Position numbers and translations under genes: made by a program. Below the pieces are notes generated by a model that searched no databases, was not told the DNA's origin, and saw only the letters and a list, made by a program, of their open reading frames with translations. A DNA stretch of 64,000 bases from Stegostoma tigrinum (Eukaryota): the NCBI RefSeq assembly GCF_030684315.1, contig NC_081397.1, forward strand, positions 10,564,421 through 10,628,420, in the 5' to 3' direction. Of the stretch, positions 607-46,804 are shown piece after piece (position 1 is the first letter of the stretch; every line of letters starts with the position of its first letter).

Positions 607-3600
607 CTGTAGGAAGACGGAACAGATAGCTCCTGTAAACCAACATCAGTTGGGTTTGACAATATTTAACTGATCAATGCAACATTTTGCTAATAGTCAT
701 TTGGATATTTTGTTTATCACCAGGAATTCTAACATAACTATGGGTCAGATTCCAGTCTTGCATTGAGCTGCTTCTTGTCTAATAATTTTTAATGACATCA
801 ACACCATTTGAGTGAGGTCTCAAAAGTAACCAAAACCTGCACAGCTCCATGACTGCATCTACCTTAGACAAACCTGTCTGTGGATATGAGTTTAGTTATT
901 GATTTATTCGTGTCAATTCCTACTTGGCGAATGTGAGAGCGTTGTTGTCAAATTTGGTAAATTATTTATGTATTACACAGCAGAGACTGACAAGGACAGA
1001 ATGGCACAGATCTCTAGACTGACTTAAACGATCCAGCACAGAAGGCATCCATGTGGCTCATCATGTCCATGCTGACCCGAACAACACCAGACAGCCATCA
1101 CCATCCCATTTTCCTGCACACATCCCATAGCCCTGCAGCTTACAGAACTTACGGGGGAGGTTCAGGTTGGTCTTAAAAGAGTTCATGCATTGTGTATTGG
1201 CATCATCTCACTGCATTCGTTGTTGTGTCAGAAAATCAGTTTCCTCAAGTCCTTAATTGCATGAATAAGGAGAATACCTGGTGCTGCCTATTTGGTCTTC
1301 TCTGTTACTTGTTTCTTCCATTCACAGGTACAATTTCTGTATATAGGAATTACTTCTCTACCTGTCAGAATGTGCTATTCAATGGGGCTGCAGGTTTCAG
1401 TCCATTGCCCGTTAAAATTAGACAGACAGTCAACACAGACCAGCGTGATTATTTTGTGAAGAACTTGGAAAATAAAATTTAACACTCAGGACTAGGGCTG
1501 CTCTCATGTGCAAATTCTCAGAATTCATCTGAGAGTTTTTTTGAAAAGAGCTGTTGTGATGAAACAAGATGGACAGCCACACTCAATGGATCCTGTTTCA
1601 CTCTTCCTGCATTATGCGACTGAGCGGTTTAAATGTTTCCTGTAAATTGGAGAACCATTTACCACAGTGGGAGAGGAGAGAGTTTTCAAGTCATCTCTCC
1701 TGTAGTGAATGGGAAAGACCGTATGTTCTTCAGTTGTTTGAGCGTGTAGCTTTCACAGGCAGATGAAAATGCAGGACATTGCAATAGTATGAGTGTTGGC
1801 TTTTCTTCAGAGTTGAGGAGGGAAAAGGAACGGACCTTTGCAACTGCTATATTAGAGTCTAAACAGCAGTGGTGATATCAAGGGACATCTTCGAGTATGA
1901 TATGAGTATTGAGTATTGATATGAGTATTGTTTCATATTGCATAGTGACATACGTTTTGGAATACTGAAGTAAAGGTATTAATTTAATATGTTATAGCCA
2001 AAGGGAAAGTGCCATGAACAAATCAACTGCATTGCAGCTGACTGATCACAATGTTCCTTGTGCAGGAAAGAAAATTGGCTTATTTACTTCTATTTTATTT
2101 TGTGGCTCAGACATTACCCTTGCTGTGTGGGGAGGAAGAAGACAGAATTTTTATTTTCTGTCATGCAGTGGAGAAAACTGCAACAGTCAAACTAAATTTA
2201 CTGAAGAATAAACATTGCTGAACTCTCCTGGCAAACAAAAAAAAAGGAGAATGTTTACTATCTACCTGATTTGGCCAAATCCTTCTTTCTCCACTGTTTT
2301 GAAGAATGGCTTTTTATTGTGTTCCTTATTTGAGAAAATGGCAACTAGTTTTCTATTGTGTGAGATGTAATACTTCAAAGGGAGTGTCATGTGGAACACA
2401 GGGCTATTTGAATAATATTTAAGCTAATTAGAAAAAAAAACGTCCATGATTATAAAGTCCTCCTGCTTAGGACAGAATAAAAGAAAAATATATTTCTGCT
2501 CGGTGACAAAACTGACAACTATCCGGCAATAAAGGTAGGGATGGTAGTTCCTCTACCACCATGATATATTGATGGAAATTGAATGCTGGCTGAATGGATG
2601 TAGAATTGTTGCCTCGTTGTTTCTAACCAGTACAGACTCAGTGAGAGACAGGACTGTTTTCTGTGTCGCAGATGTCTATGACTGTATATGTGTGAGTGAT
2701 AATCATTTTGTGTATATCATTTTCTGTTAGCTGGAGTTTAAATGGAACTCCACAGTTGTTAGTCCTTGCATCATATCTGTAGTTATGGCGTTTGCGCTTT
2801 GAACTAATTCTGGATCAGTCAGTACCTATGTCTGTCAGTCCATCCACATGGAGACAAAGCAGAGTTAATATTATGGGACCTGTGACACTTCTTCAGAACA
2901 CTCATTTCTCTACACAGATGCTGCCAGACTTGCTGAGGTTTTGCGGCAACTTCTACTTTTGTTTCTGATTCCTATCAGCTGCAGTTCCTTGATTTTTCTA
3001 TTTGTCAGGCTTTGACACTAAAAATGCATGTGGAATTCACGTCATTTATTTGTTGTGTTAATGTATGGGATTAATATTTATCAAAGGAGCAATTCTGTCC
3101 TGATCAGTTATTGGTCAACTAAACTTAAGTATCATTCATCATTTATTTCGTTGACTCATGGTGACTGCAGTATTTCCCACATCTGTATTAAACATCGACC
3201 TCTAAGAAGACTGTTGAAACAATGTAACAGTGATCATCTGGATTGTAACTTGAAAAATATGCTTAATAAACATAGAAACTGAATTCAGTCAGAAACTGAA
3301 TTAAATCTAAAACTGACAGACTGATTGAAAAAGACATTTATATATTCAGACAGCCATCCCTACCTCTCTTTTCTGCAATGTCGATATGTGAGTTTAGTCA
3401 TCAATCTGTTCATGTTAGTTTCTGCCACGTGAATGTTTGAGTGCAGTTATCAGTTTGTATCTGTTGGTTTCATGAGCAGTTCATGAGAATTCTGTCACAA
3501 AATCCAACAGTATTTTTCTTCTGAGGGAGCGACCAAATGATATTTAGTTCATGACCACGGCAATTACCATGGATTTAAATGCACGGGAATTGGATGCCTT

Positions 3601-4634: not shown

Positions 4635-4967
4635 ATGGTGTTGCTGTCTCAGCTTGCATTTATTGCCTGCACCTAATTGCCCAGAGAGCAGTTCAGAGTC
4701 AACCTCATTGCTGTGGGTCTGGAGTCTCACGTAGGCCAGACCAGGTAAGCATGCCAGTTTCCTTCCCTCAAGGAAACAAGTGAGCCAGATGGATTCTTTT
4801 TCCTGACAGACAATGGACTCATTGTCATCATTAGATTCTTAATTCCAGATCTTTATTGAATTCAAATTCCGCCATTTGCTGTGGGGTGTTCGAAACCATG
4901 TCCCCAGAATGTTGTCTGGTCTCTGCATTAACAGTGCAGTGATACGACCACGAAGTCAATGCCTCCC
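4635..4967 (-). mobile_element. tRNA-derived SINE
   Basis: Minus-strand head with degenerate A box and B box (ggtttcgaacacc). The same body (tgctgtgggtctggagtc...gtaggccagacc) recurs at 36010-36415 and 54730-55010. Confidence 0.6.
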
Positions 4968-6967: not shown

Positions 6968-8760
6968 TCATAGAACATAGAACATAACAGCACAGTACAG
7001 GCCCTTCGGCCCTCGACGTTGTGCCGACCTGTCATACCGATTTCAAGCCCATCTAACCTACACTATTCCATGTACGTCCATATGCTTATCCAATGACGAC
7101 TTAAATGTACCGAAAGTTGGCAAATCTACTACTGATGCAGGCAAAGCGTTCCATTCCCTTACTACTCTGAGTAAAGAAACTACCTCAGAAATCTGTCCTA
7201 TATCTTTCACCCCTCAATTTAAAGCTATGCCCCCTCGTGCTCGCCGTCACCATCCTAGGAAAAAGGCTCTCCCTATCCACTCTACCTAACCCTCTGATTA
7301 TTTTATATGTTTCAATTAAGTCACCTCTCAACCTTCTTCTCTCTAATAAAAACAGCCTCAAGTCCCTCAGCCTTTCCTCGTAAGACCTTCCCTCCATACC
7401 AGGCAACATCCCAGTAAATCTCCTCTGCACCCTTTACAAAGCTTCCACATCCTCTCTTATAATGCGGTGACCAGAACTGTACACAGTACTCCAAGTGCGG
7501 CCGCACCAGAGTTTTGTACTGCTTCACCATAACCTCTTGGTTCCGGAACTCAATCCCACTATTAATAAAAGCTAAAACACTGTATGCCGCCTTAACAGCC
7601 CTGTCAACCTGGGTGGCAACTTTCAAGGATCTGTGTACATGGACACTGAGATCTCTCTGCTCATCTACACTGCTAAGAATCTTACCATGAGGCCTGTACT
7701 TTGCCTTCCGGTTACTCCTACCAAAGTGCATCACTTCACACTTGTCTGCATTAAACTCCATTTGCCACCTCTCAGCCCAGCTGTGCAGCTTATCGATGTC
7801 TCTCTGCAACATACAGCATCCTTCGTCACTATCCACAACTCCACCGATCTTAGTGTCGTCTGCAAATTTACTAACCCATCCTTCTACGCCCTCATCCAGG
7901 TCATTTATACAAATGACAAACAGCAGTGGACCCAACACCGACCCTTGCGGTACACCACTCGTAACTGGTCTCCAGGATGAACATTTCCCATCAACTACCA
8001 CGCTCTTTTCTTTCAGCAAGCCAATTTCCGATCCAAACTGCTATATCTCCCACAATTCCATTCCTCCGCATTTTGTACAATAGCCTCTTGTGGGGAACCT
8101 TATCGAATTCCTTGCTGAAATCCATATACACCACATCAACCAGTTTACACTCATCTACCTGTTTGGTCACCTTCTCAAAGAACTCAATAAGGTTTGTGAG
8201 GCACAACCTTCCCTTCACAAAACCGCGCTGACAATCCCTAATCAATTTATTCTTTTCTAGATGATTATAAATCCTATCCCTTATATTGTTTTCCAACACT
8301 TTACCAACAACTGAGGTAAGGCTCAGTGGTCTATAATTACCAGGGTTGTCTCTACTCCCCTTCTTGAACAGGGGAACCACATTTGCTATCCTCCAGTCAT
8401 CTGGCACTACTCCTGTAGACAATGACGAGTTAAAGATCAATGCCAAAGGCTCAGCAATCTCCTCCCTGGCCTCCCAGAGGATCAGAGGATAAATCCCATC
8501 CGGCCCAGGGGACTTATCTATCTTCACCTTCTGAAGAATTTCTAATACCTCTTCCGTGTGAAACTCAATCCCACCTAGTCTCATAGGCTGTATCTCAGTA
8601 TTCTCCTCGATAACATTGTCATTTTCTAGAGTGAACACTGTTGAAAAATATTCATTTAGCGCTTCCCCTATCTCATCTGACTCCACACACAACTTACCAC
8701 TACTATCCTTGATTTGGCCTAATCTTACTTTCCTCATTCTTTTATTTCTTAAATACCTAT
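6968..8760 (-). mobile_element. CR1 LINE, 5'-truncated, frameshifted RT
   Basis: ORFs 7991..8737, 7321..8019 and 7185..7430 give KSPGPDG, YMDFSKEFDKVPH, SGVPQGSVLGP, FADD and LVRPHLEYCVQFWSP. The 3' end has a catagaa short repeat. Confidence 0.93.
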
Positions 8761-11647: not shown

Positions 11648-11739
11648 GAGTTTTGAGAAGATTTGTAGCTCAGGTTGAGGTTCTGGATGTGAGTTGGCTC
11701 ACTGAGCTGGAAGGTTAGTTTTCAGACGTTTCGTCACCC
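11648..11739 (-). mobile_element. second repeat family (probable PLE end) starting in a hammerhead 3' half
   Basis: Minus strand gggtgacGAAACGTCtgaaaactaaccttccagctcagtgagc...; homologous to 16256-16311. Confidence 0.6.
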
Positions 11740-12040
11740 TTTTTTTATTTGAAAAAATATACTTTTTTCATAAGATGTACAAAAAATAACACATTTACAC
11801 ACCTACCCAGTCATGCAGACCGCTTTGAGTTACCCAGGGGGTACATACACCAACTAAAGGAAAAAAAACAAACAAAGAAGAAAAAAAACAAAGCAAAGAA
11901 AATACCCCGGCAGTCGTCCACCCGCACAGTCCCCGTTGGCCCCCTGGCCAGTTGGGGAAGGCTCCAGCTGGGCCCAGTTACCAGATATGGCCCTTTTTAC
12001 CATTCTGGATGAGGGGTTTCATACAGTGGTCTTTCCCCAC
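11740..12040 (-). mobile_element. inverted second 3' end of Tx1/L1-type element (ORF2 end, 3' UTR, polyA)
   Basis: Reverse complement matches 15965-16255 with moderate divergence; encodes ...WGKTTV*; T-run at 11740-11746. Confidence 0.9.
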
Positions 12041-15000
12041 CCCGACAACCCGGAGTCGATGGAGGAGGCGTCAGGTGATCCAGGGATGGGCGACGGTCCG
12101 GAAAGCAAGGAGGAGGGTGCGCCTGCAGGCCCAGTCACCGCAACCATCAGGCGGTAAGAGACAGCTGCAGGGGGGCTATAAGAGCTCCTCTGATGAGGGA
12201 GATTCGGAGGCGGCCCGCCCAAAGCAGAAGCTATAGATCTCAAGGGAGAAGGAAAGCAGCACCCCGCTTCCAGGTGACGGGAGGCGTCCTGAGGCTCTCT
12301 CCGACACCCAGCCACGTGCCGCTGGTGCCCTGGAGGGCCCCCTGGAATTTTCAGGTGGGAAGGAGAAAACAGCATGTCCCCAGCCTGATCCAGAGCCAGA
12401 CTCTCCTGCCTCCCAACCCCCGCCGGGTGGATGCCACCCAGAAGGCAGCACACACGGATTCCTGAGCCTGGAGATCGTCCAGCAGTTATCCCGGGCAATG
12501 GGCATGAAGGGACAGATGGATGGGCTGGACCTTGAACTTGGGGAGGGTACTGTGTTCACTGCCCACAATGGGGGTATGAGTTGCGAGCATTAATGTGCGC
12601 AGCGTCAAGTCCACCGCAAGATGTGTGTCCATGTTGGCCAACCTGACCACCGTCAAGGCGGACCTCCTGTTTCTACAGGACTGTGGGATACTGCACCTCA
12701 GCAGGCACAGGGAAAAGGTCCAGCGCCTGGACCTGTGGGCCTTTGATCTGGTCGGGTGGTAACGACTGTCGCTCCTCGGGCCTGGCTATTCTGCTGCAGG
12801 GGCGCGACTTCGCCATCTCTCAAGTTCAGGAGGTGGTGGGGGGTCGCCACCTAGTGGTTGATGTCACCGACAGGAACGCTCTCCGGAGGCTGATCAATGT
12901 GTCCGCCCCAGCGGTACGGAGTGAGCGGTTGGCCGTCCTGCAGCGGCTTCCACCCCTGCTGGCTACGTCCAGGCCGGTTATCCTAGGTGGAGACTTCAAC
13001 TGCATCATTGATGCAGATGGAAGATCCGGCGTGGGGATAGCGGGTGGGGGGAGTCAACTGGTCGTCATGTCCAGATTCCTGATGGGCACGATGAATGACG
13101 CCAATCTGCTCGACGTCTTCTGTATCCCTGCCGACGGAGCCCAGCGGAGATGCACCTGGTCACGGCCAGACGGGTCTATCCGCTCAAGGATAGACTTCCT
13201 GTTTGTGTCACGGGTGTTCTCGCTCAGCTCCACCGACATCGAGCCGGTGTTCTTCTCTGACCACTGCCTCCTGCTGGCCGACTGTCACTTACAGGATGAC
13301 CAGCAGGCCGGCAAGGGAACGTGGAAGCTCAACACGACTCTGTTGACCCCAGAGAACGTCAAGGAGCTTAAGAGGGAGTACACCAGTTGGAGAACAGTGA
13401 AACCCCTCTTTGAGACTCCGGGCAACTGGTGGGAGACAGTGAAGGAGAACATCAAGAGGTTCTTTGTCCTCAAGGGTGTTCGGAAGGCGAGAGAGAGGCG
13501 GGGAAAGCTGTCACTACTCCAGAAAAGGGTGCAGAACTTACTCCTTCTGCAGTCGATGGCGGTCGAAGTCACGGAGGACCTCCGAGGTGAGGGGCCAGCA
13601 AGTCTCACTCTTTGCCGCGGAGGCCTCCAGGATAAACTTCCAGTCCAGGGTCTGCTCCGTGGAGCAGGACAAGACGTGCTCGCATTTCTTCTTTCAGAAG
13701 GTGCACCAGGAAAGCTCTGTGCTCAGCCGGCTGAAGGAGGATGATGGCTCGGTGACGTCGTTCTTGGCCCGACATTTTGAGGATCAGCAGATCCTTCTAT
13801 GCCGGACTGTACGACGTGAAGCCGACAGACAGCATGGCCTCCAAGTCGTTCCTGTCATCTATCACAGAGGTCTTAGATAACAGCACGAGGGAGTGGCTGG
13901 ACCGGCCGATATCCCTGGATGAGCTGACTAGAGTCCTCAAGTCCTTGGTGTGGAATAAGACTCCTGGGAGCAACGGCTTACCGGTCGTGCTGTATTCCGC
14001 TCTGTGGGACCTGGTCGGCCAGGACATGCTGGAGGTGTACGATAGTGCGCTTCGGGCAGGGGAAATGTGCAAGTCCATGACGAAGGGCATCATCACCCTC
14101 ATTTACAAGAGGAAGGGGGAGAGGGAAGAAATTAAGAATTGGCGTCCCATTTCATTATTGAACATGGACTACAAAATCCTGGCCAAGGCCATAGCCAACC
14201 GGGTCAGGTCTGTCCTGGAGTCGATAATTCACCCGAACCAAACCTGTGCTGTGCCTGGCAGGAAGATCACTGAAAGCCTCACGCTGATCGGGGATATGAT
14301 CGCCTACGTGGAGGACAGGAGGGTGGACACCTGCCTCGTCAGCCTGGACCAGGAGAAGGCCTTTGACAGGGTCTCTCATGCTTACGTGAGGGACATGCTC
14401 TCCAAATTGGGGTTTGGGGCAGGCATCCGCAATTGGATCCGGCTGCTCTACACCAACATCGTTAGCGCAGACTCGATCACCAGGTGGGAATTGGGCAATT
14501 TTCCCGTCAGATCTGGAGTCAGGCAGGGCTGCTCATTCTCTCCTGCCTTGTTCATGAGCTGTATGAAGCCCTTTGCTGCAACATCAGGGAGGACGTGAAT
14601 CTGAAGGGCGTGACTATCCCAGACAGCGGAGGCCTTCAGGTCAAGACCTCCCTGTACATGGACGATGTCGCCATCTTCTGCACTGATCGTTGGTTGGTGG
14701 GGTAGGCTGTTGGACATCTGCGGCCAGTTTGAACTGGCCTCGGGTGCCAAAGTCAATAGGGGTAAGAGCGTGGCCATGTTCTTCGGGAACTGGGACGACT
14801 GCCCCTTCATCCCCTTCACCGTCAGGACAGTCTACCTGAAGGTGCTCTGTGTTTGTTTCAATGGAGCTGGAGCGTTCACTAAGACTTGGGAGGAGCATAT
14901 CACCAAACTGAAGCAGAAGCTGGACAGGTGGACGCTCCGGTCCCCCTCCATCGCGGGTAAGAACCTGTTTTTCAGGTGCGAGGAGCTTTCGGTACTGTTG

Positions 15001-16255
15001 TATGTGGCGCAGGCCTGGCCTATTCTCTGGACCTGAGCCGCTGCGATCACCCGGGCCATCTTCCAGTTCATTTGGGGGTCAAGGATGGACTGGGTCCGTA
15101 GGGACACCATGTACAATAACCTGGAAAACGCGGGAAATGATGTACCGAACGCCACCCTCGCCCTGATGGCTACCTTTGTGTGCGGCTGCATCAAGCTGTG
15201 AGTAGATCCTCAGTACGCAAACACCAAGTGTCACTACTTACTGAGGTTCTACCTGTCCCCGGTGTTGTGAAGGATGGGCCTGGCCTTGTTGCCGCAGAAC
15301 GCTCCGAGTTGTTGTACCGTACCGTACCACCTGTCCTTGGTGGAGAAATTTTTGAAAGGAAACCCCTTTGACCACAAGGCCGTCAGGCAGTGGTCAGCAC
15401 ATAGTATCCTCGAGACTCGTTGGGAAAAGGAGAGGGTGGATCCCGTCGTGTGGTTCCCCATGCAGACTGCCAAAGTGGTTCGGCAGAATGCCTCATCACC
15501 AGAACTTTCAAACAAGCACAAGGACATTGCTTGGCTGGCGGTGAGAGGGGCTCTGCCAGTGAGATCCTTTATGCATGCCCGGAATCTCTGCGCCACCGCA
15601 CGCTGCCCTCGAGGTGGCTGCGGGGGTGCTGAGACTGTCGATCACCTCCTTCTGGAGTGTGCCTATGCACAGGAGGTCTGGAGGGGGATGCAGTGGTATT
15701 TGTCGAGGTTCGTCCCGAGCAGCTCCGTGACATGAGACTCTGTGCTCTACGGGCTGCTTCCCGGGACGCACATTGAGACCAACATCATCTGCAACTGGAG
15801 GACTATCAATGCGGTGAAAGACGCTCTTTGGTCTGCCCGCAACTTGCTGGTCTGCCAGCTGAAAGAACTGACCCTGACTGAGTGTTGCAGACTGGCTCAC
15901 TCCAAGGTCCAGGACTACGTGCTGAGGGACGCTCTAAAGCTCGGGGCAGCTGCCGCGAAGGCGCCGTGGGGAAAACCACCATATGAAACCCCTCGCCCAG
16001 AATAGAAAAAAGGTCCCTATCTGGTAACTGGGCCCAGCTGGTACCTTCCTCAACTAGTTAGGGGGCCAACGGGGACTGTGCAGGGAGACGACTGCCGGGG
16101 TATTTTCTTTGTTTTTTTTTCTTCTTTGTTTTGTTTTTGCCTTTCGTTGGTGTATGTACTCCCTGGCTAACCCGGAGCGGCTTGCATGACTGGGTCAGGG
16201 TATAAGTTTTTTTGTACATTGTATGAATAAAGTATGTTTTCTCAAATTAAAAAAA
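12041..16255 (+). mobile_element. Tx1/L1-clade non-LTR retrotransposon, degenerate (ORF1 end plus ORF2 APE-RT-CCHC)
   Basis: APE motifs ILGGDFN, SRIDF, FSDH. RT motifs LDQEKAFDRVSH, GVRQGC, YMDD. C-terminal CPRGGCGGAETVDHLLLEC. AATAAA at 16226 and an A tail at 16249-16255. Many stops and frameshifts. Confidence 0.92.
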
Positions 16256-16311
16256 GCGACGAAATGGCTGAAAAATGAACCTTCAAGCTCAGTGAGCAAA
16301 CTCACATCCAG
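16256..16311 (+). mobile_element. second-family (probable PLE) end directly after the Tx1 polyA
   Basis: gcgacgaaatggctgaaaaatgaaccttcaagctcagtgagcaaactcacatccag is homologous to the reverse complement of 11683-11737. Confidence 0.6.
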
Positions 16312-17119: not shown

Positions 17120-17240
17120 GTAACCAATCACAGAAAAGCTAATCACATGGTCTGAGATTCTTCAAAATTGCCCAATCATGAACCAGAGTTTCCCCCATCC
17201 CTCATTAGCATTGCTGACGTGGTCAGGCTATAAAAAGCGA
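17120..17240 (+). promoter_or_regulatory. H2B promoter: two CCAAT boxes, variant octamer ATTAGCAT, TGACG, TATA
   Basis: CCAAT at ~17124 and 17172; ATTAGCAT 17204-17211; TATAAAA 17229. Confidence 0.8.
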
Positions 17241-17288
17241 GCTCCGCGCCCATTTTCCTTTATTGTGTGTCTGGAAGTGATCGTTTCT

Positions 17289-17669
17289 ATGGCCGATGAG
17301 AAGAAAGCGCAGCAAGCCTCCAAGAAGGGCGCTAAGAAAATCATCAAGAAGGCGCCGGGGAAAGCCGGCAAGAGAAGGAAACGGTCCAGGAAAGAAAGTT
17401 ACGGCATCTACATCTACAAAGTGATGAAGCAGGTTCACCCCGACACCGGCATCTCCTCCAAGGCGATGAGCATCATGAACTCGTTCGTCAACGATATTTT
17501 CGAGCGTATCGCGGGGGAGGCTTCCCGCCTGGCCCATTACAACAAGCGCAGCACCATCAGCTCCCGGGAGATCCAGACCGCGGTGCGGTTGCTGCTGCCC
17601 GGGGAGTTGGCCAAGCACGCCGTGTCGGAGGGTACAAAGGCGGTGACCAAGTACACCAGCTCTAAGTGA
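17289..17669 (+). CDS. H2B: histone H2B (126 aa, divergent N-tail)
   Basis: Canonical H2B fold ...[23 protein letters not shown]...TKYTSSK; intronless; stem-loop downstream. Confidence 0.98.
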
Positions 17670-17709
17670 GACCCCACATTGTGCTGAGAAAACACATCCA
17701 AAACCCAAC

Positions 17710-17725
17710 GGCTCTTTTCAGAGCC
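17710..17725 (+). terminator. histone 3' stem-loop
   Basis: GGCTCTTTTCAGAGCC followed by ACCCA and a purine-rich HDE-like element. Confidence 0.97.
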
Positions 17726-18269
17726 ACCCACAACTTCGCTGAAACAGCTGAACCAACTTTGTGCAAATGATTTTCGGTATGTATTAGTAATGTCAGTCGG
17801 CTTTTTAAAAATAATGTAATTGTTTAAGAACTTGATGTGTGGTCCCTCATCTGCCCTTTATTTTAGGTTGCAGCCATACCCTGTCTCGTTTCCCTGTATC
17901 TGCAAAGAGCATAATTATCTCCAATGAATCATTTATCAACAACTTCCACTTTTTGAACCACTTTTCGTTTGTAAATGATTCTCGGTGTCTATAATTAATG
18001 TCTCTAATCTTTATCTTTGTTTACACAAACGTTCTAAACATTAACGTGCGGTCCCTGTCCCTCTGTCGGTTACTTTCGGTTGCCTTCCTACCCAGTCTCT
18101 CTTCCCTCCCTGTACAGAAAGCACATTCATCGTCACTCAGTCATTTTTTTTCAACAACTCCTGTGTTCCAGTTATTATTTACCCCTTGATCAGGAATTTC
18201 ACCCCCTAGAAAGAAAACTAACTGCTCGAGTCCCATGAACAGATCTTGCAGAATACTTGTCATTTCAGG

Positions 18270-20142: not shown

Positions 20143-20789
20143 AGGGGCCGTTCTGTAACCTGACAACCAATGGCTCTTTTCAGAGCCACCCACAAAATCA
20201 GTGCAAAGCAGCTAGACTGTCACTGCTGGTTGATTAATTTTCATTTTATGTGCAAACATAATTCCTTTTATTTTTTCCCTAACCGAGATAAAACTGGAGC
20301 AGCTACCGGACACGACGAATAAAGTCTGAGGTTTTACTGCAGGGACAGCGACTTGAAATAATAACTCAAAGCGGTATCCCCATCAATACGCTGACGGAAC
20401 AAAGGACATGCAATAAGTCGCCGCAACAAAGAGGCCATTCGATACGAAACCGACCCGCCTCAGAGGATCGAATGAATACATTAGTGGGAGATTTGGTCGT
20501 GCAATTGAAATTTTGCCCAACGCATAAAAATTGTTTGTATGTTTTGATGGGCTTTTCGATTTGGTAACCTTTTCCCACCACCCTCCTCCGTCAAGCTCCG
20601 TTATAGCTGGCAATACGCCCAGTGAAGAAATTTGCCCACGTAGGCGTTTCAATCGGAAACTTATAAAATATGGGGTGCAATACTTCAATTGTGTTATGAT
20701 TTCTGAACATTTATGAACCTGATTGCCCCGAGTTACCTTTTGTCTTTAATGTGAATTAGTGTATCTCAGAACCAACAAATTTCTCTAAC

Positions 20790-40973: not shown

Positions 40974-42069
40974 GACACCACATTGTGCTGAAAAAACACA
41001 TCCAAAACCCAACGGCTCTTTTCAGAGCCACCCACAACTTCGCTGAAACAGCTGAACCAATTTTCTGCAAATGATTTTCGGTATGTATTAGTAATGTCAG
41101 TCGGCTTTTTAAAAATAACGTAATTGTTTTAGAACTCGATGTGTCGTCCCTCATCTGCCCTTTATTTTAGGTTGCAGCCATACCCTGTCTCGTTTCCCTG
41201 TATCTGCAAAGAGCATAATTATCGCCAATGAATCATTTATCAACAACTTCCATTTTTTTTTCCAAGTTCCTCTTTCACACTTGATGACCCCGGGAAACAA
41301 AGTTAACATCGAATCCCATGAATAGATTTTACAATCTACTTGCTGTTCTGTTAATTTTACAATGAACCGAGATAAAGCCAGAGCAGCTGCCGAATTGCGA
41401 TAGCAAGTGTGAAATTGTGCCTGACGACTGGTCAAGGACAACAGGGGAGGGCAACTTCAAGCTGTTGTTTAAAGTGTGAACGCGTTCACCCAAAAGGACA
41501 TTGTGCGAGGTTTAATCAATATTCGGTGTGCACTTGAAAAGTGAAATAAAAATATGCGCAGAATGCGGTGCTTTTTTTTGCTATTTCCGCTTGTTGCTAA
41601 ATTCAGAAAATTCTATTCAAGTGCAGAAATGGACAGATTCGAGTAGAAGAGAGAATGCAATACAGAAAAATTGTGTAAAGTATTCATTTGCAATGTCAGT
41701 GTGAGTGAGCTTATACAGGATTAAATTATTCACTCCTTTTCCTCTTTTGTGGGTTTGAGCATTTTTCAAACTAATCGCAGTGGGTTCTGAACCCTGAAAT
41801 CCCCCTGCAATTTAATTGCAATTCAATTCCAAATCTCAGCGGGATTTGTGATTTTTGTTTTTTTCAAAATGCAGTATGTGGTACTTTCTGCTGTCGGTGC
41901 GAGAATTTCAAAGTGATTCTTAACGAAACTAGAATAGCTCCCGGACTCGCATCTGCAATGTGGAACTATTGTAGAAGTCCAGTCGAGTGCAATAGGAAAG
42001 GCGATTTTAAAAATATTGTCCAAAGCATTAATACGCTCACCTGAAAAAAGGAGTATTTTATCAATATCA

Positions 42070-43746: not shown

Positions 43747-45426
43747 AGGGGCCGTTCTGTAACCTGACAACCCAAAGGCTCTTTTGAGAGCCACCCACAA
43801 CATCAATGAAAAGCAGTTAGACTGTCACTGCTGGTTGGTTATTTTTCCTTTTCTGTGAAGTCTGGGGACTGTGTAAATGAAATTGCGATAATTAAACTTT
43901 CCTTTTTTATTTTAGATTTCTTAAAAAATATTTTTTTCTCAGACTTTTATATTGGTTCAATCTCTGGAAAAGCTTCACCAGTCTGGCAAAATTTGTGGAA
44001 GTGAAAACAGGTCACGTTTAGGGTCCGCTCACCGTCACTGAGGGCCTTATCTGGTCAAGATAAAACAAGAACAGCTGTCGCCCTGGAATAGTAAACGTGG
44101 AGTTTTAGCTGTAAGGGACTGCGGCATTAAATAATCAAAATGCTGTCCCCATTGTTCCGTCAGGGAACAACACCGTTGAGTACCTGCACAGGAGAAAAAT
44201 GGCAAATCGATTCTGTACCGACCAAGGGGATCAACCGACAAACACGAGCGGGGACCGGGCCAAAAGGGAGATTGTGTGACCTAAACTTATAAATCCTTTG
44301 TATGTTTTGGCGGGCTTTTCAAATTTAAAAGCAATAATTGTTGAAGGCTGATTGACAAACTCATTTGCAGTTAACCGATTTGAAATAATCCGCTGATTTC
44401 ACCCTGAGAGTGAATAAATATTAAAACGTAAAACACCATTCGTCTGCAACTTGTATTGTGCCGAATACGTTATAGAATTTTCTTTGTAACAGAGATTGCA
44501 GTCTGCGCGGCCAGCACTTTGGATCATTGCCTGAAACAGGCAGGAGCAAAGCGCGGGGTTTGATGCAGTCCAGCGAAACTGATCAACCGAACGTGAAACC
44601 GTGGTTAATCTAAACAACATGCCGATTTAAACATCTTAAAAGCTAGCACAGTATGCGACGGTAAAAATACAAAATGTCACTTTATCGGTACTTTTTTAAA
44701 ATTACACCCAGACCATAATTAGCCCGCACACAACTTGCAATTGCTGCCAGTCCTGTCGGTAACAGGCAGATAGAAAGAATACGGCACGAAAACAGCGGCA
44801 CGGCTGTGAGAGTGAAAACTGAACAACAAATCATTCCTGGAAGGGTCAATGAAGTACAAATACTGTGAAATGTATCATTCGCCTCTGGGTCCCAAAACTC
44901 ATGGAAGAACACATTATTATTCATGGTGTTAACAACTAACTACACATACTGGTATTGTTACCGAGACAGAGAGGTGTTCGTAAGAAAAAGGGTCTAAGGT
45001 CAAGGGGAGAAGGCACATCAGGGTTGAGAAACCAATCAGCCATGATCGAATGACAGAGCCGACTTCTGTATCTTAGTCGCAATGTGATATAATCAGCAGC
45101 AATATCAGTGTATTCTCGAACGGCTGAAAAGCCTCTATCTGCACTGAAGGGATATTTTAAATGTAAAACATTCGTTATAGGAGACAGCAACGAAGTGAAT
45201 GCTCCGCTCTACCTGTTTTCACTCCTGTAGCGCTGAGCGTGAACTTTATGTATTGTCTTTAAAGAGTGATCCAAAATCAAATATCTCGAAATGAAATAAC
45301 CAGCTGCAGTACACTGTCCACTCCCTATGTGCTGCCTTTTCCCATCCTCGGGTCTCCGCTCTCAATCGGAGGGTTTGGGTGGCTCTGAAAAGAGCCTTTG
45401 GGTTCGCTGGAAAAGGGACGAGTTGT

Positions 45427-46014: not shown

Positions 46015-46106
46015 AAAAGGCGGTGAGCAAGAACACCAGCTCCAAGTGAGACACCACATTCTGCTGAGAAAAACACATCCAAAACCCAAAGGCTCTTCTA
46101 AGAGCC
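46015..46106 (+). pseudogene. H2B: H2B 3' remnant with stem-loop
   Basis: KAVSKNTSSK*, then the H2B 3' UTR and GGCTCTTCTAAGAGCC at 46091-46106. Confidence 0.85.
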
Positions 46107-46162
46107 ACCCACAACTTCATTGAAAGAAGCTGAGCCATTGTCTCTATTACTGGTTTGCTTGA

Positions 46163-46508
<346 letters not shown>

Positions 46509-46804
46509 ACCCACAACATCAGTGAAAGAAACTGGACCCTCACCACAGCCGAGTTAATTTTAATGTCCTCTGTATTACTGGGAGACTGGTAACACAATAC
46601 TCACCCTGCCATTATTGTTAGTGTTATTGAGCTATAATCCGCCCGGACGGAATGTATCCATGAGGTAGTTTCCTGTAATTGTATTGGAAAGATCTGACAC
46701 TGTTAGAGGAATAGCAACAAGTTTAGAAATCGGGTAATAATAACCCCGGAAGCCGTAAAGCAATTCAGTATCCCTTGACATGATGCATTCGACCAGATAA
46801 AACT

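Follow-up and report, generated by a model that had tools for sequence, protein, structure and literature searches.

The DNA examined here, hereafter the window, is a 64,000-nt stretch of Stegostoma tigrinum contig C56 (origin at C56:10564421; genome 3.2 Gb), in which a long interspersed nuclear element (LINE) of the Tx1 type seems to end twice, with two inverted tails between positions 11648 and 16311. It is highly probable that a head-to-head insertion of a Penelope-like element (PLE) received a separate Tx1-type LINE in each of its two predicted hammerheads, and that a centre of ~6.4 kb was later deleted; sequence-specific nicking followed by target-primed reverse transcription is the likely way in which the LINE family reaches the site. 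No new insertion mechanism is called for: the two-tailed shape is what is left of a double insertion that collapsed.

The locus, its paralogues and the deletion

On the left side of the window, T7 at 11740-11746 opens an inverted 3′ untranslated region (UTR) that reaches ~12041; on the right side, the 3′ UTR starts at ~15966 and A7 lies at 16249-16255. Aligned over 301 columns, the two UTRs show 83% identity. Both tails are followed by the same foreign repeat, in a 92-nt long form on the minus strand (11739-11648) and in a 56-nt short form (16256-16311), and the two tail-target junctions are offset by 2 nt in the target register. These observations confirm the description given in an earlier note on this DNA, namely diverged and inverted ends that each have a 3′ UTR and an A tail, with a common repeat starting within ~2 nt of the same position. 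The plus-strand LINE spans ~12039 to the end of A7 at 16255. Its parts, and those of its flanks, with the open reading frames numbered ORF1 and ORF2, are the following:

11648..11739, minus strand: PLE hammerhead 3′ half (stem II 3′ strand, GAAA core, predicted cleavage triplet, stem I 3′ strand) and long PLE end with tail, 97% identical to a free PLE end; from uninterrupted forms elsewhere, the left arm of the original inverted PLE insertion
11740..12041, minus strand: remnant of Tx1 copy 1 (A7 tail, 3′ UTR, final ORF2 codons), the remaining ~5.0 kb being deleted; 98% identical to the 3′ end of the left full-length element in paralogues L230 and L233
12039..12041, no strand: joint left by the deletion, with 3 nt of microhomology (7 nt at most, should a short repeat unit differ), from comparison with both parental sequences in L233
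12039..12593, plus strand: C-terminal part of Tx1 copy 2 ORF1, its RNA-binding and zinc-knuckle part being deleted (tblastn with an intact ORF1, residues 317-485)
12568..15986 (end approximate), plus strand: Tx1 copy 2 ORF2 with apurinic endonuclease (APE), reverse transcriptase (RT) and zf-RVT domains, frameshifts and stops (Pfam PF03372, PF00078, PF13966)
15966..16255, plus strand: Tx1 copy 2 3′ UTR and A7 tail, from sequence features; 2386 first-look candidates in the genome
16256..16311, plus strand: PLE hammerhead 3′ half and short PLE end, the right arm of the original inverted PLE insertion; 87% identical to a free PLE end

The ORF2 of copy 2 was recovered as four tblastn pieces in three frames, 80-88% identical to an intact ORF2. 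Pairs of a long and a short arm, such as flank the window elements, also occur in free inverted PLE insertions. Restricted to the window, a scan with a 13-nt motif is uninformative (two matches, a number also reached by 17 of 100 shuffles), but the tabulated flanks of genomic copies (24 of 24 and 30 of 30, see below) exceed chance by far.

The history of the locus can be read from its paralogues. The left junction is present in ten C56 loci, six of which have the right junction at the same spacing, and two of the other four (L230/L236 and L233/L235) keep an undeleted centre. These two contain the left flank of the window (97-98% identity), the left target and a full-length left LINE. Next come a PLE fold-back centre of ~270 nt, in which the 5′ halves of both hammerheads are retained, and an inverted second LINE, represented by its head and body. 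This second LINE is 97% identical over its first 2.3 kb to the right element of the window, as against 88% for the left one. Moreover, the left remnant of the window is 2.2-2.5% from the left LINE of the paralogues, and its right element is 0.5-3.8% from their second LINE between element positions 1100 and 3200, with many shared rare variants. The window junction consists of both parental sequences with a 3-nt overlap and ~6433 nt missing; the loss comprises the greater part of copy 1, the fold-back centre together with the two PLE 5′ halves, and 1.1 kb from the start of copy 2. The C56 paralogues form a series of states: undeleted, centre-deleted in six copies and otherwise rearranged in two. 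While the earlier note had assigned both 3′ ends to one element, the undeleted paralogues point to two elements, two insertions and a later deletion, and they bear out its statement that twin priming is not the cause.

The two elements also differ in origin. Left and right are distinct at 10 of 32 subfamily-diagnostic columns, where a single template predicts 1.4 (P 2.5e-6) and random old pairs have a median of 35%; the arms thus come from different sources and from separate insertions. From element position 3200 on, the 3′ part of the window element shares 11 rare variants with the left arm, which suggests that it is the original partner of that arm.

The right LINE of one undeleted paralogue holds a 2.4-kb insertion (L235:4899-7300) that resembles a repeat at 6969-8749 of the window, and it ends at 7955, element position 4635. 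A third state of the locus is seen at L231:6380-6500 and in L232, in which unrelated repeat sequence adjoins the left LINE, kept from element position 2806; the 9 kb fetched past this joint revealed no second LINE. The window locus lies within a histone cluster, segmentally duplicated at least ten times on contig C56. Six histone 3′ stem-loops were identified with Rfam (window 17705-17750, 20167-20211, 41009-41054, 43772-43817, 46086-46131 and 46488-46533), and an H2B-like ORF lies at ~17124-17669.

The predicted hammerhead target and the precision of insertion

Of the left repeat's 20 best matches outside the paralogues, six lie behind a LINE tail and the other 14 are uninterrupted. The uninterrupted targets carry a CUGAUGA half and stem II upstream, in agreement with the proposal of the earlier note that the repeat is the 3′ half of a PLE minimal hammerhead. 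Indeed, they follow the type I minimal pattern: CUGAUGA, one extra U, a 6-bp stem II closed by G10.1-C11.1, a 6-nt loop, GAAA, a palindromic ACGU (15.2-16.2), C17 and a 3-bp stem I. The traits described for minimal PLE hammerheads in PMC4209133 are a CUGANGA and GAAA core, an extra base between 9 and 10.1, G10.1-C11.1, a palindromic 15.2-16.2, a long helix II and a short helix I, and the uninterrupted copies fit that descriptor. Helix I next to the core has 3 bp in the target, compared with 4-5 bp in Schistosoma hammerheads, and helix II has 6 bp (PMC4209133). Hammerheads of this minimal type are described as acting as dimers with low activity (PMC4209133).

The surroundings of the motif resemble those of a PLE. 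Upstream lies an ORF with an RT match above the cut-off (RVT_1, E 2e-9) and a weak GIY-YIG match (E 0.002-0.004, under the Pfam gathering score), and the hammerhead stands at its end; the order RT, GIY-YIG, hammerhead was pieced together across PLE fragments. Among 30 free PLE loci taken in order of position, 13 have an inverted partner no more than 1.5 kb upstream, with ends of the long and the short form. This is a known layout, in which PLEs form head-to-head pairs with an optional tail of ~35 nt (PMC3846280, PMC11167929). The target resembles known metazoan PLE hammerheads in all these respects: the descriptor, the RT and GIY-YIG-like ORF that it ends, and the paired arrangement with optional tail (PMC4209133, PMC11167929, PMC3846280). 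In free targets the PLE stop codon is located inside loop II of the hammerhead (e.g. L179:1500-1525) and the LINE insertion point is the 3′ edge of the same loop, a few bases beyond it, so that a LINE landing there would spare the host ORF yet split the ribozyme. Exact 43-nt copies of the target number 5875 in the genome. The descriptor also fits another family of minimal hammerheads, whose stem II is shorter (L073:6620-6653), and no tail of the studied LINE family was seen there. At L067:3503-3886, a complete inverted PLE pair sits inside a LINE copy, which indicates that the PLE was still active after that LINE insertion.

The specificity of the LINE was measured in samples rather than as a genome-wide on-target count, the C56 paralogues being excluded from flank counts and duplicate genomic copies removed by identical sequence. 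In all 24 non-paralogous loci fetched by UTR similarity, the tail ends on the target. The same holds for 30 of 30 tails taken in genome order, 26 of them in PLE ends and four in the head of another LINE; in each case the landing point is loop II, be it of a minimal hammerhead or of the version borne by the LINE itself. These counts support the idea, put forward in the earlier note, that the family targets the hammerhead of a Penelope family, and the other genomic copies, whose flanks could have been unrelated, have the same 3′ flank. A pattern match was obtained for 115 of 116 distinct tails from 109 loci, six of which had been picked by target, and the single miss is a target with a 1-nt deletion. 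The matched tails continue into 58 long PLE ends, 38 short ends, 15 LINE heads and four truncated targets. They fall into five junction classes (72, 35, 4, 3 and 1 of 115), of which the two largest correspond to joining at +2 (72 tails) and at +3 (35 tails); in the usual form, the last base of the loop is lost. At the other extremity, 27 of 30 heads taken in genome order follow a PLE 5′ half, each with its own PLE length, two follow another tail and one follows other sequence. For target-specific non-LTR (long terminal repeat) retrotransposons, a threshold of more than 20% of flanks of one kind has been used (PMC4494074), and the studied family exceeds it at independent insertions (30 of 30 tails). 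As a side observation in a second organism, run X10 (organism C) includes contigs with the same free hammerhead, with the LINE head, and two short contigs (59 and 49 nt) across the tail-target joint; from such short pieces, they hint that the pairing of LINE and target exists there as well. No contig listed for organism E bridges this joint.

The LINE family, its 5′ joint and a possible insertion route

Intact LINE copies are ~5.35 kb long, with ORF1 and an ORF2 of ~1140 aa (APE, RT, zf-RVT), and many of 138 scored matches have an open frame of 1159 aa. Exact 30-nt LINE tails number 1642 in the genome. The intact ORF1 (L148) contains ZCCHC3-type RBD1 and RBD2 and a zf-CCHC (Pfam), and an ORF1 with RNA-binding domains and CCHC knuckles is typical of Tx1. 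The ORF2 architecture, an N-terminal APE, an RT and a C-terminal zinc domain, is found in the window pieces as well as in the intact copy (Pfam). A zebrafish protein annotated ‘transposon TX1 149 kDa’ matches the RT region at 45% identity (E 1.7e-98), human L1 ORF2 being more distant (E 4e-73 for the whole ORF2), and the best hits are unnamed or amphibian proteins at 54-58%. Domain layout and named relatives point to the Tx1 group. A genome search with a distant ORF2 (P0007) for other Tx1 families returned frames of the 1159-aa type only, and the 12 loci fetched all belong to the studied family. At L147:7068-8070, two tandem derivatives of ~500 nt consist of a short head joined to the last 480 nt; they have the same breakpoint, are 4.5% apart and are possibly a short non-autonomous form.

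Several observations bear on the independence of the insertions. Copies L158, L161 and L162 (contigs C9, C18 and C51) have bodies 0-0.04% apart and a rare base at -4 in common, yet they differ from ~-37 outward and downstream, L162 lying within an older LINE head; they are near-identical copies in three different pre-existing targets. Of 12 tandem pairs, most of them from loci picked because their main copy is young, ten have fewer private changes in the upstream than in the downstream copy, one is tied and one is reversed. In 40 young loci, the sole LINE tail directly upstream of the main copy is that of an equally young neighbour. Finally, in five truncated copies (L064, L074, L087, L098, L099) the joint is with PLE sequence of the same strand that lies 60-800 nt upstream of the site.

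Every full-length copy seen starts with a diverged version of the target, from position +1 to ~+57. Allele counts in heads were compared with 61 free sites, 27 pattern-selected ones having been dropped from 88. An A6-to-U core change at -16 is found in 26 of 74 heads and in one of the 61 free sites (p 4e-7), and this excess makes it likely that the LINE RNA carries sequence upstream of the nick and overwrites the target. The hammerhead core is intact in 3/74 heads, versus 28/61 free sites (p 4e-9). Given how few of its own 5′-end copies keep an intact core, the LINE does not appear to use the hammerhead. Upstream alleles are significantly linked to body relatedness at -4 only (p 0.015), not at -16, -30, -31, -68 or -69. 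A target-site duplication was rejected: downstream variants recur upstream at chance level from +4 onward, with one exception at +3 in L139. Regarding selection for a dead ribozyme, fixed head changes are not enriched in the core (2/14 versus 13/62, p 0.72), and of the two lineage-fixed changes in the core, one is a CpG transition. No fixed change was seen in stem II and loop of the head (0/19), though part of that stretch may be target-derived.

Double occupancy is common and not confined to the window. Next to young heads, five of 17 visible partner arms are occupied, and tail-out pairs resembling that of the window recur in L084 and L090. In old inverted LINE pairs (L069, L074, L087, L094, L098, L099, and also L233/L235), the two arms share rare variants at ~2.6-10 per kb, as against a background of 0.07 between loci. 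Such sharing also links arms that are not close relatives (L098, L099), and it is densest beside the palindrome centre, the arms differing by 4.5% in the first 800 nt versus 5-18% beyond. No shared rare variants were found in inverted pairs of unequal age (L082, L143, L163, L166). The sharing between non-relatives and its density at the centre fit later gene conversion between palindrome arms, and the sequences thus point to arm-to-arm conversion in old inverted pairs.

We can propose the following route. A bottom-strand nick made by the APE endonuclease at the 3′ edge of loop II would come first, and reverse transcription would begin at the short A tail with little pairing or none. The RNA's 5′ end would bear PLE sequence from upstream of the nick, so that the end of the complementary DNA could anneal to the upstream flank of the target and overwrite at least 16 nt of it, as in a model proposed for R2 (PMC3774820). 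Such a joint would yield precise full-length 5′ ends and rebuild a usable target at the head of the LINE, from which tandem arrays with the newest copy in front would follow. Each insertion would leave a split ribozyme half behind the LINE and a mostly broken one in front. Since PLE insertions often have two outward-facing hammerheads, double occupancy would make a palindrome of ~11 kb, which could then undergo arm-to-arm conversion and deletion.

Alternative explanations, related elements and meaning

Other histories of the window must be weighed against two insertions and a deletion. If a single LINE had entered a PLE and the composite had been spread by the two-ended insertion machinery of the PLE, tail-out pairs would arise directly. 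The one long and one short PLE end of the window, as in free inverted PLE insertions, are compatible with this; PLE protein is described as cleaving and extending both strands with internal starts at two sites (PMC11167929), PLEs as carrying foreign DNA in trans (PMC3846280), and four truncated arms (L079, L084, L090, L279) abut the opposite arm without a PLE 5′ half of their own. However, near-identical bodies sit in different targets, older LINE heads included, the junctions fall into five classes, the tandem arrays are polar, the five truncated copies described above join same-strand PLE sequence upstream of the site, and the full double insertion survives in the paralogues. This transport is refuted as a general explanation and is most improbable for the window, though it may account for some truncated arms. 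A single event, either twin priming or two simultaneous primings with the cDNAs joined centrally, can hardly be entertained. The short microhomology at the junction and the variants shared by old inverted pairs in six loci would be expected from it, but the paralogues retain both heads and the PLE centre, so the window joint is secondary, and the sharing extends to arms that are not close, is densest at the centre and is absent from pairs of unequal age. A twin-primed L1-type insertion, a single event with an internally inverted segment and one 3′ end, was likewise rejected, the two 3′ ends belonging to two elements as in the undeleted paralogue.

The part played by the ribozyme raises questions of its own. 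A chimeric ribozyme at the 5′ junction might free the LINE RNA from a PLE co-transcript, as the R2 ribozyme does in rRNA: a whole hammerhead-like stretch precedes full-length copies, three of 74 heads keep the core, and the head changes at +18 and +19 may be compatible with stem I pairing. This is nevertheless very unlikely, as the core is broken in 71/74 heads versus 33/61 free sites (p 4e-9) and cleavage would strip the RNA upstream of +16, where element-specific alleles are found (+13, -4, -16). At the other extreme, the site may have been chosen as abundant conserved DNA irrespective of the ribozyme, the broken core of the heads reflecting neutral decay. The 5875 exact copies of the site, the lack of core enrichment among lineage-fixed head changes, one of two in the core being a CpG transition, and Tx1 families known to target other transposons with no ribozyme involved (PMC4494074) favour this view, against which stand several different non-CpG core-breaking variants in older heads; on the adaptive question alone, we give it an even chance. 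It is compatible with two insertions followed by a deletion and removes only the adaptive reading. In that adaptive reading, the LINE would be a hyperparasite transcribed from the PLE terminal repeat, shaped by selection to bear an inactive hammerhead copy that spares its 5′ homology arm from cleavage, killing each ribozyme that it hits and seeding large palindromes as hot spots of conversion and deletion genome-wide; as a whole this is a speculative and rather doubtful proposal.

Some observations weigh against the double insertion into hammerheads that we favour, or against parts of it. The undeleted paralogues are without the 3′ end of the right element and the right flank, and they diverge from the window beyond element position 3200, so the ancestry of the right junction is inferred from the rare variants shared with the left arm. 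With Rfam, no hammerhead was found at gathering score in the window and none at E up to 10 on a free target copy, and the monomer fold of the target is no better than that of shuffles (z -1.13), although stem II is present in the predicted fold; hence, hammerhead identity rests on the published minimal descriptor. Among 39 young copies, the presence of the A6-to-U change is unrelated to body relatedness, with 16 concordant pairs of 33 nearest neighbours where 15.6 would be expected. The Tx1 assignment, drawn from domain layout and pairwise matches, is provisional. In contigs of run X1 (organism A) at 82% likeness, 69 tail ends continue into mixed sequence and may be other families or off-target copies. 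The nicking, transcript and cleavage steps, lastly, are deduced from sequence.

Among Tx1 elements, the choice of a mobile element as target is not specific to this family. Xenopus Tx1 is found in the piggyBac element Tx1D and crocodilian Tx1-Mar in Mariner-N4_AMi, while Tx1-8_Crp and Tx1-4_AMi target LTR retrotransposons and Tx1-9_AMi targets Harbinger (PMC4494074). The studied LINE is similar to them in its two ORFs, its APE and RT, its short A tail, its site inside a mobile element and the attendant worry of hitchhiking (PMC4494074). It differs by its target, a PLE hammerhead loop, absent from the targets given in that paper, by a specificity that is essentially complete in our samples and fixed to 1-2 nt, by the ~57-nt diverged copy of downstream target at its head and by the lack of target duplication. 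For R2, target sequence on the RNA is described as giving uniform 5′ junctions, and the earwig R2 has a fixed, diverged 22-bp copy of the downstream target at its 5′ end (PMC3774820). The studied LINE likewise has uniform 5′ junctions and a diverged downstream-target copy fixed at its 5′ end, and junction variants can propagate via RNA (PMC3774820). Altogether, it resembles R2 in 5′ joining and other Tx1 elements in its choice of a mobile-element target. Unlike R2, which has a restriction-like endonuclease, its own live ribozyme of the hepatitis delta virus type and a 28S rRNA target, it is of the APE type, with a dispersed mobile-element target whose ribozyme is mostly broken in the head.

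In the open-access literature, Repbase and subscription journals being outside this scope, we found no report of a LINE targeting a PLE hammerhead. The available portions of two papers on PLE hammerheads likewise report no LINE targeting such motifs, unlike what is seen here (PMC4209133, PMC11167929), and the text consulted of a 2026 retrozyme preprint makes no mention of Tx1 (10.64898/2026.07.22.740005). New here are the undeleted paralogues, the three-sister test (L158, L161, L162) and the selection test with its negative outcome.

With this finding, the targets of the Tx1 group extend to a new class, a ribozyme that belongs to another retroelement. Natural replicates for the study of target recognition and of homology-guided 5′ joining are at hand in this APE-type LINE, which inserts with single-site precision, has near-identical recent insertions and retains an intact ORF2 in many copies. 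For annotation, it is a warning that tail-out LINE pairs are not necessarily due to twin priming. Moreover, the C56 paralogue series is a rare natural record of the fate of a long palindrome.

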